DNA from: Alphaproteobacteria bacterium
Lineage (GTDB): Bacteria > Pseudomonadota > Alphaproteobacteria > RF32 > CAG-239
Length of the DNA stretch: 64,000 nucleotides
Direction: 5' to 3'
NCBI GenBank assembly: GCA_045116295.1
Contig: JBGULQ010000012.1
Span: 25,678-89,677 of the forward strand
Positions 42,421-47,545 of the stretch are shown here, piece by piece; position 1 is the first letter of the stretch, and each line of letters opens with the position of its first letter. A model generated the notes under the pieces. That model was not told where the DNA came from. It ran no database searches and worked only from the letters and a program-made list of their open reading frames with translations. The position numbers and the translations under genes were made by a program.

Positions 42421-44536
42421 CCAACTTTAAGGAATTTTGCCATGAAAAAACTATATTTATTTTCCTTGATTGCATTTTCGCTCGTTTCAATCAACGCTTT
42501 TGCTCAAGATGAGGATTTGCACGATGCCGCCGTTCTATCCGAACATTTCAAAAGTCCTCAACAATTCACCACATGGTACAAAGGACTCAACCAAGAAAAT
42601 AAAGATCTCGTTTTAGCAGGTACAATATACACCTGTAAGCCTGACTTGACCAAAACCGCCTTGGCAGAGGGGGGCAATATCAACACAAAAATATCGGTCA
42701 TAAATATTACCTCCGGCCACGATGATCATTCCTCAGCATACATTTACGCATACAGTTCTGGTGATATTGATGATTTCATGATGGAAGTAATAGCCGCCGG
42801 TATGGAAAAATCGGCGCAAGCCGTAAAAGAAGAAAGTTGCGGACACACATTTTCTCACATGTCAAGCGAAACTCCCGGATTGATGTCATTAATCTCTGCT
42901 AGCATAAAATTTTGCCCAACTACAGATACAAAAGCGAAAATGTTGCAACTTTTAAAATCAAATGGCTCAGATATAAACGAAACCAACTATTTACATGTTT
43001 CTCCCTTATCAGAAGCGATTGAGCAAAAAAATATCAAAATGATAGAACTTTTATTGCAAAATGGCGCGGATTTCAGCAAGACCTTTGCCCTTTCACGCAT
43101 GATAGATAAATACGATACATTTCACCCCAATGCCGAAACTGAAGCAATATGGGATTATGTTATAGCGTATCTGCAAAATCACAAACTCACACCTGAAGCC
43201 GAAACCGACGCCTATATAAAAGGTCGCTTAAGAATTAAGTATCTACATACACCTGAAGCCGATATTGACCTTTATACTGACGATTTTGATGCCGCTTGGA
43301 TAAAAGATCGCCTAGAAGAAGACAATCGACTTAACACCAAATTAGAACAACTAAATTTACACCCGGACTATAGTACAATAGCCGCAAAAGAAGGAATATT
43401 GGCCGCTGCTGAACAACATAAATATACTTTACTGCAAGAACTGGTAGATAATGGAGTTGACGTAAATTATCAAAACGAAGATGGACGCACTGCACTATTT
43501 CATGTAACAAACATTTATATTCATAATCTAAACGATGAAGATATTGAAGCAATAAAATATTTATTAAATCATGGTGCAGACATAAATCATCAAGACAAAT
43601 ATGGACGCACCGCATTATTTCATGTAACAAACACTCCTAAACCGAGCAATAAAGACATTGAAGCAATAAAATATTTATTAAATCACGGTGCAGACACAAG
43701 TATTAAAGATAAAGATGGTAAAACTGCCTTTGATGATTGTGCTTATAAAATTTGTAAACTTAGTCCATATGGTATGCGAAAATTCTCACCTGACGACAAA
43801 ACTACTATACCAACGTTAAGCCAAGCTATTGATGAAAATGATTGTGCTACCATCGTTGAGCTTATTAACAAAGGAATAGATCCTTACATAAATATCTACG
43901 GAGAAGCCTTATTTTTCCGTATGTATCACACAGATAATAGAAAATGTCTAAAAAATATTTTAGACCTTGGTATTGACCTAAATAAAGTTGTTATAATTAG
44001 AGATGATAACGGGGATATTGAGGACATTGATACCGCTCTAACTTACGCCGAACAATATTTTTGGTCACAAGATATAATTCCGCTATTAAAACAATACGGA
44101 GCCACTGAAACTGATGACGTACAACGAATACGAACATATAAGAAAATAATAAATGGCAGTCATGTAATATTCGGATACAACGCGCAAAAAGAGGCAAGTA
44201 TACGGCAAAAACTAAAAGAAAAAGATCTTAAAGATTGGGAAATTGAGGTATATCAACAACTACTCAAAAAACAAGAATACATGAAAATACATGAAAATGA
44301 TCCAGATCCAGTAGATTCTTTTCATAGATAACATTACCAACAAATTTAAACTCAAAAAAGCTTTTGATCTATAACTAAATTTAGGAGGCTCTACATGAAA
44401 AAACTATATTTATTTTTCTTGATCGCATTTTCAATCGTTTCAACCAACGTTTTTGCTCAAGATGAGGATTTGCACGATGCCGCCGTTCTATCCGAACATT
44501 TCAAAAATCCTCAACAATTCACCACATGGTACAAAG
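42380..44536 (+). repeat. Dispersed direct repeat (42380-42583 vs 44334-44536)
   Basis: Glutaredoxin 3' tail plus the start of the next gene is duplicated; the ~86-bp core has one mismatch. Confidence 0.85.
42442..44331 (+). CDS. Secreted ankyrin-repeat protein
   Basis: Signal peptide; repeats GRTALF..IKYLLNHGADIN, LLLQNGAD. Confidence 0.9.
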   Translation: MKKLYLFSLIAFSLVSINAFAQDEDLHDAAVLSEHFKSPQQFTTWYKGLNQENKDLVLAGTIYTCKPDLTKTALAEGGNINTKISVINITSGHDDHSSAYIYAYSSGDIDDFMMEVIAAGMEKSAQAVKEESCGHTFSHMSSETPGLMSLISASIKFCPTTDTKAKMLQLLKSNGSDINETNYLHVSPLSEAIEQKNIKMIELLLQNGADFSKTFALSRMIDKYDTFHPNAETEAIWDYVIAYLQNHKLTPEAETDAYIKGRLRIKYLHTPEADIDLYTDDFDAAWIKDRLEEDNRLNTKLEQLNLHPDYSTIAAKEGILAAAEQHKYTLLQELVDNGVDVNYQNEDGRTALFHVTNIYIHNLNDEDIEAIKYLLNHGADINHQDKYGRTALFHVTNTPKPSNKDIEAIKYLLNHGADTSIKDKDGKTAFDDCAYKICKLSPYGMRKFSPDDKTTIPTLSQAIDENDCATIVELINKGIDPYINIYGEALFFRMYHTDNRKCLKNILDLGIDLNKVVIIRDDNGDIEDIDTALTYAEQYFWSQDIIPLLKQYGATETDDVQRIRTYKKIINGSHVIFGYNAQKEASIRQKLKEKDLKDWEIEVYQQLLKKQEYMKIHENDPDPVDSFHR

Positions 44537-44922
44537 AACTGCCGACAAAAGATAAAAATCTCGTTCTTGCCGGCACAGTACATGCTTGCCGTTCCGAGCT
44601 TACACAAATTGCTCTTAATAACGGCGGAGATGTTAACACCAAACTTCTCGTTCTTACAGTAACTTCCGGTCACGACGAAGATGGCACAGATTACCTCTAT
44701 ACATATAATCGAAGCGACGGCGACCAAAACCTTGTTTCTGTACGAGCTATACAAGACGGCGTAAAAAGAAGCCAAAACGCCACCAAAAAAGAAGATTGCG
44801 GACACGATTTTTCGACCATGGGTGCAACCACACAAGGTTTTATCACCCTGAATGATGTTGCCACTCAATTCTGCAAACAACAAACTGATGCCGCAAAAAT
44901 GAATGAGATACTCAAACACTAA
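44395..44922 (+). CDS. Secreted protein, paralog of the N-terminal domain of the ankyrin protein
   Basis: AQDEDLHDAAVLSEHFK shared; conserved Cys and TSGHD. Confidence 0.8.
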   Translation: MKKLYLFFLIAFSIVSTNVFAQDEDLHDAAVLSEHFKNPQQFTTWYKELPTKDKNLVLAGTVHACRSELTQIALNNGGDVNTKLLVLTVTSGHDEDGTDYLYTYNRSDGDQNLVSVRAIQDGVKRSQNATKKEDCGHDFSTMGATTQGFITLNDVATQFCKQQTDAAKMNEILKH

Positions 44923-44944
44923 CACACCTAAGGATCTGTTAACC

Positions 44945-45415
44945 ATGCACTTGTTCGAAAACTATCGTAAAACTCCAGCTTATAAACTCTGCTGGAAAAT
45001 CACAGTATTATACATTCTTGTAACAGTGTGTTTAAGCGTCTTTCTCCAAACTGCAATTGTTTTTTTCTTCCTTATATCATGTGGTTCATTTTTCATCACT
45101 TTCACTTCCTTATCAATATTCAGTATATTTCAAAGCAAACAGTGCAAAAAAACGGAAATAAACAATAGCATCGCATCCGACATAATTATATATATTACCA
45201 TATTTACCATCACTTGGTTTTGTTATAGCTTAGCAGTTGGAAGTATAATGTGCACTATTATTTTTGCCATCATATCAATAATTGGCTTATTTTGCAAAAA
45301 ACAAAACAAAAAAACAGACTATAAAACCAGCATTATCGCTGATATTGGATACATTATAGGCTTATTGATCTGTTGTAATTGCATAGTATTTCTGCAACAA
45401 ATTTTTACAAATTAA
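44945..45415 (+). CDS. Hypothetical membrane protein with internal duplication
   Basis: Several TM segments; two similar CKK...SI(A/I)(S/A)DI units. Confidence 0.55.
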   Translation: MHLFENYRKTPAYKLCWKITVLYILVTVCLSVFLQTAIVFFFLISCGSFFITFTSLSIFSIFQSKQCKKTEINNSIASDIIIYITIFTITWFCYSLAVGSIMCTIIFAIISIIGLFCKKQNKKTDYKTSIIADIGYIIGLLICCNCIVFLQQIFTN

Positions 45416-45421
45416 TACATC

Positions 45422-45896
45422 AAACGGCAATTTGGCACTCTGCACAATAAAAAATCCGCCTTTCAGGCGGACTTTTTAATGGCGGGAGTGACGGTCGCTA
45501 AGTAAAAACAAGCCACTAAAGCTTGTTTTTGTCTGCAAGACCAACGGAACATCTTGTTGAGCAAGGCTCTGACAAGAGCCACAGCGAAATTAGATGCCGT
45601 TGTATAGCCTCGTTACAAATTGCCGCAAAAAACGGCAATTTGGCACTCCGAGCAACAAAAAATCCGCCTCTTCGGCGGATTTTTAATGGCGGGAGTGACG
45701 GTCGCTAAGTAAAAAACAAGCTACTAAAGCTTGTTTTTGTCTGCAAGACCAACGGAACATCTTGTTGAGCAAGGCTCTGAGAAGAGCCACCGCGAAACTA
45801 GATGCCATTGTATAGCCTCGTTACAAATTGCCGCTAAAAACGGCAATTTGGCACTCCGAACAATTAAAAAATCCGCCTTTCAGGCGGACTTTTTAA
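45422..45896 (-). repeat. tRNA-linked tandem repeats (two full units of 207 and 210 bp plus a partial unit)
   Basis: TGGCGGGAGTGACG at 45480, 45687 and 45897; near-identical units, each with a terminator. Confidence 0.92.
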
Positions 45897-45973
45897 TGGC
45901 GGGAGTGACGAGGCTCGAACTCGCGACCTCCTGCGTGACAGGCAGGCGCTCTAACCAACTGAGCTACACCCCC
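45897..45973 (-). tRNA. tRNA-Asp (GTC)
   Basis: GGGGGTGTAGCTCAGTTGGTTAGAGCGCCTGCCTGTCACGCAGGAGGTCGCGAGTTCGAGCCTCGTCACTCCCGCCA. Confidence 0.97.
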
Positions 45974-46141
45974 AGCGAATTCGTTATACCTTATAACTAA
46001 CATTTTTTTCATTTGCAAGCATTTTTTTCATAAAATATTAAAAAAATAAAAGTATAGGATATCATGAATTTTTATTTGGCATTTTTTTACTGTCATGCTA
46101 GAGTAGTGCTGAAATAATTTGTAAGTAGCAAAGGTATTGTT

Positions 46142-47545
46142 TTGTTTAAAGATTTTATACAACAAATTTATCCCTCGATTAAAACCAAGCAATGTTGGGT
46201 AACATTTTGCTCTACATTTGCTGTGGCTTTAGCTCTTATATTTGTAATTTCAAAAAACGGCTCAGTCAAAGCCTCTGTTCCGCACGATACCTCAATCACC
46301 GCGCTTCAAACCAGTGTTGAAGAAGATGGCTTTGAAGAAGAAACTATCATCGCTGAAGAAGAAGAAAGAACTCCTGTTCCTCATGATGGCAAATACACCA
46401 TTGACGTTAAATCCGGCGATACATTATTAAGCATTTTGACTGAAATGGGGGTTGAATATAAACACGCAAACGACGTATTTGTATCCATTCGTAAAGTATT
46501 TAACCCGCGTGACCTGCGTGTCGGGCAGAAAATTGAGATTGAAACCGCCACCATTGACGGATCTTATCTTATAAAATCCCTTACTTCAACATTGCGTACC
46601 GGACAACACCTGAATGTTGCCCGCAACGACAACGGTTCTTATTCAGCTCAGATTGATAAAGATGAACTGATTGAAGAAATCAAAACCGTCCACGGAACAA
46701 TTAACGGCATTTTATCAACATCGATGAATAAAGACGGTGTACCAAGCCGCATAATTGCCAATTTTATCCACATTTTCTCGCCTGGCGTTGATTTTCGTCG
46801 TGATATCAAAAAAGGTGACAGCTACGAGATTATGTATAAAAACTATCTCACACCTGATGGCATCATTGTCAAGAACGGCAACATCGTTTACGCCTCACTG
46901 ACTACCGGCAAAAACAAAAGGGAACTTTATCGTTTTAAAGATGCGAGTGGTATGGTAGATTACTACAACTCCAAAGGTGCAACAATTAAGAAAAATCTGC
47001 TTAGTCGCCGCCCAATGGCCCATCAATCGAGCCGAATTTCATCATATTTCGGTCGTCGCCGTCACCCGATATACAAGGATATTCGCACTCACTGGGGAGT
47101 TGACTACCCTGCACCCAAAGGCTCATTGGTCTACGCTGCCGGCAACGGCATCGTTGAGGTTGCACAATATCGCAATGGCTACGGTAACTACATCCGCATC
47201 AAACATAATGGTGAATATTCTACCGCATACGGCCACCTAAATGGCTATGCTCGAGGCATTCGCAATGGAGTTCGTGTCAAACAGGGACAAATTATAGGTT
47301 ATGTCGGCTCAACCGGACGCTCTACCGGTCCTCACTTGCACTATGAAGTAATTCGTAAAGGACAACGTGTCAATCCGCTAACCATCAAGGCTACTGCCAA
47401 TAACAACCTCTCAGGCAAAAATCTGGCTAACTTTAAGCATCAAGTCAACAAAATTAATGGTACACTCAAAAACATGATGGCTAATGCTAAAAAGTCTGAA
47501 AAATTGGCTCAAGAACAGACCAATCAGTCTGAACAAGTAAACTGA
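46142..47545 (+). CDS. M23 peptidoglycan DD-endopeptidase (MepM-like)
   Basis: TM anchor, GDTL LysM-like segment, HWGVDY, STGPHLHYEV. Confidence 0.92.
   Translation: MFKDFIQQIYPSIKTKQCWVTFCSTFAVALALIFVISKNGSVKASVPHDTSITALQTSVEEDGFEEETIIAEEEERTPVPHDGKYTIDVKSGDTLLSILTEMGVEYKHANDVFVSIRKVFNPRDLRVGQKIEIETATIDGSYLIKSLTSTLRTGQHLNVARNDNGSYSAQIDKDELIEEIKTVHGTINGILSTSMNKDGVPSRIIANFIHIFSPGVDFRRDIKKGDSYEIMYKNYLTPDGIIVKNGNIVYASLTTGKNKRELYRFKDASGMVDYYNSKGATIKKNLLSRRPMAHQSSRISSYFGRRRHPIYKDIRTHWGVDYPAPKGSLVYAAGNGIVEVAQYRNGYGNYIRIKHNGEYSTAYGHLNGYARGIRNGVRVKQGQIIGYVGSTGRSTGPHLHYEVIRKGQRVNPLTIKATANNNLSGKNLANFKHQVNKINGTLKNMMANAKKSEKLAQEQTNQSEQVN

Follow-up and report, generated by a model that had tools for sequence, protein, structure and literature searches.

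What are the repeated, structured units that follow the tRNA-Asp gene in a stretch of 64,000 nucleotides (nt) from an Alphaproteobacteria bacterium (GenBank assembly GCA_045116295.1, contig JBGULQ010000012.1, positions 25,678 to 89,677, here called the window), and do they act as RNA or as DNA? An earlier note on this DNA had offered two answers, processed tRNA-like non-coding RNAs or a tiny non-autonomous element that integrates repeatedly at the tRNA 3' end. By architecture, the array is of the type of the tRNA-linked repeats (TLRs) of Escherichia coli. This assignment is well supported, as the array lies downstream of the tRNA gene on the same strand, each of its units ends exactly as the tRNA does and its copy number lies within the range of one to five tandem copies. 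The E. coli tyrT locus, cited in the earlier note as a precedent for tRNA-linked repeats, was indeed the right one by architecture. The central part of each unit, termed the core, belongs to a new sequence family with a strongly covarying fold that is found beside many tRNA genes of related genomes.

The tRNA-Asp gene (anticodon GTC, CCA encoded) is located at 45897..45973 on the minus strand, as are all parts of the array. It scored 70.1 bits with the Rfam tRNA model and was the single tRNA gene detected by ARAGORN in the whole window. The gene is followed by terminator 1 (45866..45889; a GTCCGCC-TGAA-AGGCGGA hairpin and T6, with a terminator-like site at 45872-45888), which has an upstream A-run and can therefore act bidirectionally. 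Unit 1 (45687..45858, 172 nt, CGGAGTGCC ... CGTCACTCCCGCCA) was delineated by sequence, fold and local alignment to the tRNA. It starts with GGAGTG (45857-45852), followed by a variable hairpin (45849-45825) and by an inverted copy of tRNA positions 59-69 (45824-45814). This inverted piece, GTAACGAGGCT, matches tRNA-Asp at 10 of 11 positions in a local alignment, and GGAGTG is located upstream of it, across the variable hairpin. Core copy 1 (45702..45810, 109 nt), a conserved and self-contained fold, scored 109.7 bits with the covariance model and was included in alignments A1 and A2. The 3' arm of the unit (45687..45700) repeats the final 14 nt of tRNA-Asp, CCA included, without a mismatch (14/14). 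Terminator 2 (45657..45680; TCCGCC-GAAGA-GGCGGA and T6) is a variant of terminator 1. Unit 2 (45480..45650, 171 nt) has the same plan by sequence and fold, with core copy 2 at 45495..45602 (108 nt, 115.5 bits) and again the exact last 14 nt of the tRNA at 45480..45493. Terminator 3 (45449..45472, terminator-like site 45455-45471) is identical to terminator 1 and is followed by a stub of a third unit (45422..45442, 21 nt), in which the 5' arm variant CAGAGTGCC and the first half of a hairpin were recognized by sequence and by a weak nhmmer match.

Tandem Repeats Finder reported the array (45422-45910) with a period of 208, 2.3 copies, 92% matches and a score of 869, and the CCA ends are 210 and 207 nt apart. 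The identity of each unit to the tRNA end comprises 14 nt within the tRNA (CGTCACTCCCGCCA) and 7 nt of its trailer, and a stretch of ~46 nt, from the tRNA end through terminator 1, recurs exactly after unit 2. The layout described in the earlier note, with tRNA, terminator, unit and terminator in two full units and a partial third, was confirmed by the sequence, ARAGORN and Tandem Repeats Finder; the 14-nt ends and the two periods were likewise confirmed in the sequence.

One rival explanation is a single unit wrongly expanded during assembly, a concern that was also raised in the earlier note. In an independent DNA run, the short-read contigs end within the array, none of them bridges the join of unit 1 and unit 2, and the copy number of two rests on the assembly. 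Both outer junctions of the array were, however, present in the contigs of this run (tRNA to unit 1, and the end of unit 2 through the stub to the flank). Furthermore, the units differ at ~8% of their positions and terminator 2 is unlike terminators 1 and 3, and a collapse or expansion error would not yield such differences. Tandem pairs and triplets of the family were also observed in many other assemblies. An assembly artefact is therefore extremely improbable.

Both units are predicted to form stable folds. The minimum free energy (MFE) fold of unit 1 reached -67.4 kcal/mol (z -6.5) and that of unit 2 -64.5 kcal/mol (z -5.5), and none of 200 shuffled sequences was as good in either case. 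Both folds contain the closing stem GGAGUG/CACUCC, the helix AAAUUGCCG/CGGCAAUUU, a long CAAYGGCAUCU/AGAUG..CCGUUG stem that encloses GGCUCU/AGAGCC, and a hairpin with an A5-stem-U5 arrangement. Of the hairpins listed before on the basis of the letters, the closing stem, AAAUUGCCG/CGGCAAUUU, the GGCUCU stem and the A5/U5 hairpin were recovered in the MFE folds, whereas GTCT/AGAC is not kept in the family. Differences between the two units are mostly found in loops. The stem difference CAAT/CAAC, described before as CAACGG versus CAATGG, is indeed a U-G wobble on the minus strand; it is a single data point.

In order to analyze the core, which makes up the middle 108 nt of each unit, a covariance model (R1) and a broader model (R2) were used. 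Five core copies already gave 11 base pairs with two-sided changes. In 45 distinct cores, 94.9% of the cells were standard pairs compared to 72.8 ± 0.7 in column shuffles, and two-sided changes were seen at 29 of the 30 model pairs; the observed values were reached in 0 of 500 shuffles. When pairing partners were slid by one to three columns, pairing fell to 37-50%. Two pairs outside the model, 95:156 and 96:155, were 99% paired with four pair types each in a second alignment (79 distinct rows). Each joins one of the two bases that immediately precede the invariant TTGCAGAC to one of the final two core bases; together, the pairs close the 3' domain and set the 3' boundary of the core. The GTCT/AGAC hairpin and a weak three-pair helix of the model were superseded by them. 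The resulting plan consists of a long 5' stem-loop domain, one unpaired base and the 3' domain, in which the invariant internal loop TTGCAGAC lies opposite CTTAGC (as RNA, UUGCAGAC / CUUAGC) and a variable hairpin is formed by an A-tract and a T-tract. The 5' and 3' ends of the core are brought together by two covarying helices, which is the geometry that would be expected of an insert in a loop or helix of a host structure. Nine pairs were kept via two-sided changes in ten cores that, in different species, occupy one and the same position ahead of tRNA-Thr(GGT). A lack of covariation in homologs had been named in the earlier note as speaking against its interpretation; the covariation found is strong.

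The core has no counterpart in Rfam. In the region 44500-46800, all matches at E up to 10 besides tRNA were below the gathering score, and no match at gathering level was obtained in eight loci with core copies away from tRNAs. The core is thus a family without an Rfam match and a new sequence family.

Where does this family occur? When the whole genome was searched with the two units, further copies of their central ~110 nt were detected beside tRNA-Ser(GCT), tRNA-Met and tRNA-Thr(GGT). R1 gave five strong, two clear weaker and two marginal matches (E near 1) in this genome, and R2 gave eight core copies. In a sample of relatives, 31 of 61 genomes (this genome included) contained R1 matches. 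Within this sample, the core was found in 28 of the 36 genomes of the same family, in the sister family of the order (1/1) and in one of the other 23 families tried, and in a class-wide sample in only 2 of 150 other families. Up to 15 cores were counted per genome; frequently they form tandem pairs with a spacing of 170-240 nt, and frequently they are located at contig ends. A collection of species-representative genomes was scanned with a degenerate DNA pattern, which matched at least 117 stretches, of which 80 loci were listed. Among the matches listed, 73 of 80 loci were confirmed by the model, all of them titled as uncultured Alphaproteobacteria-type metagenome-assembled genomes, many from gut or rumen; the seven unconfirmed loci among the matches listed are those titled as other phyla. 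On viral contigs seven pattern matches were obtained, none of which was confirmed by the model.

After de-duplication, 128 model hits were reduced to 116 places, and 22 tRNA species were involved. The core is located behind a tRNA gene and on the same strand, as in the window, at 26 places, and behind a tRNA gene on the opposite strand at another 26. At 15 places it is located in front of a tRNA gene, always on the opposite strand (15/15). No tRNA gene was present at the locus in 25 of the 116 places, and 24 places were too close to the edge of the locus for an assignment. The earlier note had asked whether the same body occurs behind other tRNAs; it is found beside at least 20 other tRNA genes, framed by copies of their own ends.

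The downstream units share a common frame. In the sense of the tRNA, it consists of the tRNA, a terminator, a degenerate inverted copy of approximately positions 50-70, the core in either orientation and sometimes with an extra hairpin, a direct 3'-end copy that is exact from position 57-64 to the 3' end, and a terminator. Alignment of the flanks to the respective tRNA placed the inverted piece on the left in 22/25 same-strand and 26/26 opposite-strand units, and the direct 3'-end copy on the right in 25/25 and 21/26 units, respectively. In upstream units, the core directly adjoins an exactly copied stretch of tRNA positions 1-20/25 (1-40 in one species), and in several upstream units of tRNA-Thr, positions 23/25-42 continue on the other side of the core. 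Here the core is located antisense within a partial tRNA copy, at the D-loop or the variable loop. Core copies away from tRNAs have conserved, mutually complementary flanks of their own. Promoter-like boxes seen by eye upstream of these copies were dropped, as they are not conserved in all of them. In L042:1789-2700, and similarly in L059, L063, L098 and L110, the core is located in tandem repeats of ~235 nt without a tRNA, in the apical region of a hairpin that these repeats form themselves, and the upstream flanks of the repeats share the motifs CTAGAGC/CTAATACAG and CATGTAC.

Do the units mimic a tRNA? A true mimic would be recognized as tRNA-Asp and would either be charged by aspartyl-tRNA synthetase (AspRS) or serve as an acceptor-end decoy for enzymes or toxins. 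Both units of the window have a 6-bp acceptor-like stem followed by C-G-CCA, and a comparable stem is present in other same-orientation units, such as that at tRNA-Ser(CGA) in genome G011. This stem is, however, 6 bp instead of 7 bp long and comes with an extra unpaired C. The units contain neither an anticodon arm nor a T-loop, and there is no GUC in a hairpin loop, while the anticodon is a main identity element for AspRS; charging of the unit with aspartate is not expected. A tRNA cloverleaf was rejected, since ARAGORN and the Rfam tRNA model match only the real tRNA-Asp gene. The likeness is limited to the 6-bp stem and the last 14 nt. In a test of the closing-stem energy, units had a median of -31.9 compared to -23.1 for mismatched flanks, a difference that is inflated in the downstream classes by the duplicated, self-complementary terminators, and only the result for upstream units was used. 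There, no closing stem was detected (mean duplex energy -21.6 versus -23.9 in mismatched controls). In addition, about every second downstream unit has its core in the opposite orientation to the tRNA. The label of a tRNA mimic used in the earlier note was therefore overstated, and mimicry is very unlikely.

The comparison of occupied and empty sites bears on how the units arise. The tRNA-Asp site was compared across 20 loci of the genus, this window included (1/20). At 9/20 loci the site is empty, with the tRNA and its terminator followed by unrelated DNA. Besides the window, 3/20 loci have a core at this site (one unit; one unit and a stub; two cores). The nearest relative, G003, has a truncated unit that is cut ~22 nt into the core (1/20), and 6/20 loci carry a different body of ~190 nt in the same kind of frame. 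The filled site of G008 and the empty site of G006 have both flanks in common, and the filled site shows a duplication of 45 nt that comprises 12 nt of the tRNA end and the whole terminator.

Duplications of this kind raise the possibility that the units are scars or miniature satellites of integrase-driven islands, where the direct repeats would correspond to attL and attR and the tRNA 3' end would have been regenerated. The direct repeats extend from the T-loop or T-stem past the tRNA 3' end (21-46 nt in this array, 45 nt in G008), and repeats reaching from the T-arm to the 3' end are typical of tRNA-targeting integrases. The tandem accretion and the polymorphism at the tRNA-Asp site would fit as well. 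On the other hand, the sequences that frame this one core are the ends of more than 20 different tRNAs and sometimes a 5' half, and a single integrase would not recognize all of these. No integrase gene was found in or beside any of the units read, and the genome contains two tyrosine recombinase matches (307 and 342 aa). The units span only ~170-210 bp, and two cores located 26 kb apart in G011 belong to separate tRNA loci and are not the ends of an island. An origin from islands is hence improbable. Two serine recombinase matches were also found in this genome. One of them, an open reading frame (ORF) of 567 aa with a serine recombinase (Resolvase) domain at C18:18336-18791 (+), lies ~1 kb from a tRNA-Met gene (C18:17231-17307) that has a 5'-end repeat, and may represent an integrated element.

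The core itself behaves as a discrete module. In L042, where the 235-nt repeat has no tRNA, one unit is missing exactly the core, and the next three units have the core at the same point. The core boundaries seen here agree with the boundaries from covariation to within a shared dinucleotide AC, and comparison of filled and empty units revealed no target duplication beyond this AC (2 nt). This presence or absence favours the idea that the core is a selfish or neutral DNA repeat, i.e. a small non-autonomous mobile element that colonises hairpin or palindromic frames at the ends of tRNA genes, with a fold that single-stranded or cruciform DNA would have to adopt in order to be copied or recombined and with RNA as a by-product. 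In line with it, the core occurs in either orientation within a constant frame and in up to 15 copies per genome, many of them at contig ends. Sister species differ at one site, the site can carry a different body, and 25 of the 116 places have no tRNA nearby. Furthermore, hairpin modules are common to different loci, and G-U is not clearly favoured over A-C in the helices.

The search for a mover argues against a selfish element. This genome, which is 100% complete by marker genes, has no match to a Y1 transposase, a reverse transcriptase (RVT_1), an IS110-type or an rve-type transposase, and only a sub-threshold TnpB-like match. Among 41 genomes of the family, 15 have a Y1 transposase, but seven core-rich ones (G000, G029, G031, G032, G033, G034 and G036) all lack it. 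A miniature element derived from IS200/IS605 or a REPIN was rejected, since this genome has no Y1 (HUH)/RAYT transposase and the seven core-rich genomes have no Y1. A classical miniature inverted-repeat transposable element was rejected as well: the core has no terminal inverted repeats and no target-site duplication beyond AC. That none of the seven viral pattern matches was confirmed also weighs against such an element.

A further argument comes from a tree of 124 cores, in which the cores group mostly by tRNA locus, across genomes and genera. With tandem and duplicate rows removed, 29 changes of the tRNA label were required, with a possible minimum of 21, compared to 45.5 ± 1.4 on average in 200 shuffles (lowest 41); genome kinship contributes to this grouping. 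The grouping across genera suggests that most copies are probably old residents that keep their fold rather than recent jumpers. Taken together, a selfish or neutral repeat is possible but somewhat doubtful. Of the non-autonomous element at the tRNA 3' end proposed in the earlier note, the occurrence beside many tRNAs, the empty and filled sites and the exact presence or absence of the core were borne out, whereas no partner of the integrase or transposase type was found.

The explanation that we prefer is a model like that described for E. coli, in which read-through of the tRNA transcript and trimming to the CCA end would yield a stable small RNA whose core binds something. We consider this model about evenly balanced between being right and being wrong. 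One unit would have come in through a duplication in which the tRNA end and the terminator were copied, and unequal recombination between the 46-nt direct repeats would then have led to 2.3 copies. Some RNA polymerases would read through terminator 1. Because the end of the unit equals the tRNA end (14 nt, trailer and terminator), the enzymes of tRNA 3'-end maturation would trim the unit to its CCA end, and a stable RNA of ~170 nt would be released, as described for E. coli rtT and RrA/B/F. Its core, with the invariant UUGCAGAC / CUUAGC loop, might act as a protein-binding small RNA whose dose follows the transcription of the tRNA. A promoter scan found no sigma-70-like promoter inside the array on either strand, which fits read-through as the sole source of a transcript. 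The unit is not essential at this locus.

Transcription was examined in three metatranscriptome runs. Run X17 contained a contig of 184 nt (depth 3.4) that extends from approximately position 47 of the tRNA across terminator 1 to 115 nt into unit 1, and that carries the same variants as a DNA run from another study. No contig over the adjacent coding stretch was found in this run. Contigs of X15 and X16 fall only on the tRNA and the neighbouring coding stretch, with none on the units, and are uninformative as to absence. The contig of X17 is a weak hint of read-through. For the processed non-coding RNA of the earlier note, transcription is thus backed by this one low-depth contig.

Several observations weigh against the E. 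coli-like model. The X17 contig gives neither the strand nor the ends of a transcript and may derive from carried-over DNA. The plus strand folds as well as the minus strand (-66.3 kcal/mol, z -6.0), so that folding energy gives no strand assignment; folding of both strands, as suggested before, confirmed that both are well structured and did not identify the strand. Counts of G-U versus A-C in helices were 42 versus 20 in alignment A3 and 16 versus 20 in A2, a weak lean to the core strand that is not decisive. Both alignments from which pairs were counted had been fitted to the model, and such fitting favours its own structure. Whole variants of the terminal hairpin recur in cores at different loci, and part of the apparent compensatory change may reflect module swapping or exchange between copies. 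Above all, downstream cores lie equally often in either orientation (26 same, 26 opposite) and all upstream cores are opposite (15/15). Read-through from the tRNA promoter would therefore yield the complement of the core at many loci. The mixed orientation is difficult to reconcile with an RNA role that depends on sequence and agrees better with a role at the DNA level or with a selfish element. Finally, the nearest relative has a truncated unit and 9/20 loci are empty, so any function is dispensable at the tRNA-Asp locus.

In a more far-reaching interpretation, the core would be a structured module that is mobile irrespective of orientation and that copies itself, without a known transposase, into the middle of palindromic frames derived from the T-arm and acceptor of the tRNA gene concerned, or into the D- or variable loop of partial tRNA copies. 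If the E. coli TLRs had been made by the same process, TLRs would be widespread, unrecognized tRNA-templated mobile elements rather than operon-specific small-RNA genes. We regard this interpretation as rather unlikely.

Frames of this kind are not restricted to the core. For 15 of the 45 tRNA genes in this genome, a terminal 12-mer (the first or the last 12 nt) is repeated within 700 nt, and one more gene, tRNA-Gln(CTG) at C8:91886-91959, abuts a core match. Copies of the 5' end are found 46 and 254 nt upstream of tRNA-Met (C18) and tRNA-Pro(GGG) (C25), respectively. Nine of the loci with repeated tRNA ends carry a second, differently folded body (~110 nt, conserved) in the T-loop of a partial direct tRNA copy. 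In this second family, the terminator is followed by tRNA positions ~46-69 in inverted copy, by positions 48-57 in direct copy, by the body in the T-loop and by the exact last 19 nt. It is found behind tRNA-Gly(GCC), Pro(TGG) (two units), Gln(TTG), Leu(CAG), Asn, Ser(GGA), Pro(CGG) and Thr(GGT), and loci L201-L208 correspond to G000 C14:7800-8250, C16:1-560, C2:23350-23800, C10:1800-2200, C18:14800-15250, C20:28250-28700, C26:27700-28100 and C3:59700-60100. An Rfam search of the nine loci at E up to 0.01 gave tRNA and two below-threshold matches to plastid families over tRNA genes, and no RtT. A third body of ~190 nt, ending in ...TTTTATCCTCGAG on its own strand, is located in reverse orientation behind tRNA-Asp in six sister species (L167-L170, L172 and L173). 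It has GAG..GAG flanks in the T-loop of a partial tRNA copy, and its 3' hairpin resembles that of the core in reverse. Weakly scoring relatives of the third body are present in this genome at C8:10-116 (contig start) and C3:49722-49980 (behind tRNA-Thr(CGT)). The second and third bodies are located in the same type of frame as the core; TLR-type frames are thus a general feature of the lineage, with at least three kinds of body.

Two ORFs on the plus strand run antisense through the units (45523-45708, 61 aa; 45731-46000, 89 aa), one of which overlaps the tRNA. They were rejected as genes and treated as mechanical, recurring only because the units recur, since indels in the family are not multiples of three. 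Further away in the window, a 629-aa ORF with ankyrin repeats and a signal-peptide-like start is located at 42442-44331 (+). It is followed by a 175-aa ORF (44395-44922, +) whose first ~100 residues are nearly the same; the latter appears to have arisen by partial duplication of the ankyrin-repeat gene in its 5' part.

For annotation, such arrays are relevant because assemblies break at them, because they resemble tRNA 3' ends and att sites, and because they could pass for the borders of islands. Beyond this, and unlike E. coli, the lineage offers dozens of species in which one body is found at many tRNA loci, with a covarying fold, both orientations, empty and filled sites and at least two further bodies. 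Two old questions become testable here: whether such repeats are working RNA or selfish DNA, and how the frame of inverted and direct tRNA copies originates.

How does the array compare with known systems? Small palindromic repeats such as REP/BIME (repetitive extragenic palindromes and the mosaic elements built from them, including REPINs) and the Rickettsia palindromic elements are short, hairpin-rich, multi-copy and intergenic in small genomes, often near terminators, and encode no transposase. In the window, unlike in these elements, the frame derives from the local tRNA, the fold is complex with several helices and invariant internal loops, and the genome has no RAYT/Y1 gene. The tRNA-end repeats of islands and prophages share with the window a direct repeat from the T-arm to the 3' end, polymorphic occupancy and tandem accretion at one site. 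They differ in that the insert of the window is ~170 bp without a gene, the ends of more than 20 tRNAs, as well as 5' halves, frame its body, and a partner integrase was not found.

The closest likeness by architecture is to the TLRs of E. coli. In PMC8144298, TLRs are traced to a first description in 1978, and 22 of them are listed, distributed over ten loci that each have one to five. Their final 18-19 bp are identical to the upstream tRNA or rRNA at its 3' end (PMC8144298). According to the same paper, no function is known, an early claim for rtT was withdrawn, and the elements are still without an agreed function or origin (PMC8144298); in a bioRxiv preprint, the mode of action of rttR is still termed unknown. 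Three TLRs lie behind rrn operons between two terminators, and are described there as transcribed by read-through, processed and bound by Hfq and CsrA in vitro (PMC8144298). These units (RrA, RrB and RrF of rrnA, rrnB and rrnD) resemble those of the window in lying between two terminators and in that they end by repeating the 3' terminus of the stable RNA upstream. They differ in following 5S rRNA, and they carry CsrA-binding GGA motifs and bind Hfq in vitro; such motifs were not seen in the units of the window, where no search aimed at them was made.

The 178-bp repeats of tyrT/tyrV (rtT/RttR; Rfam RtT, RF00391) are, like the units of the window, located directly behind a tRNA, on the same strand and in tandem. 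In E. coli K-12, the 178-nt unit of tyrV consists of an inverted copy of tRNA positions 56-77 (19/22), a partial direct T-arm, the body and the exact last 19 nt, and an inverted copy of the T-arm and acceptor upstream of a structured body is common to E. coli TLRs and the window. Copy numbers are also alike (1-5 per locus in E. coli, 2.3 in the window), whereas the exact tRNA 3'-end copy is shorter in the window (14 nt versus 18-19 nt). The bodies themselves show no detectable homology. The RtT model scored 133-137 bits on four E. coli K-12 units and had no match in 44500-46800 at E up to 10, so that membership in RtT (RF00391) is not supported, and the core model reached a best score of 3.7 bits on the tyrV locus. 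In contrast to the tyr TLRs of E. coli, each unit of the window has its own terminator, and the core, unlike the E. coli body, is also found flipped, in front of tRNA genes and away from tRNAs. The TLR architecture is known from E. coli; the sequence family of the core is new.

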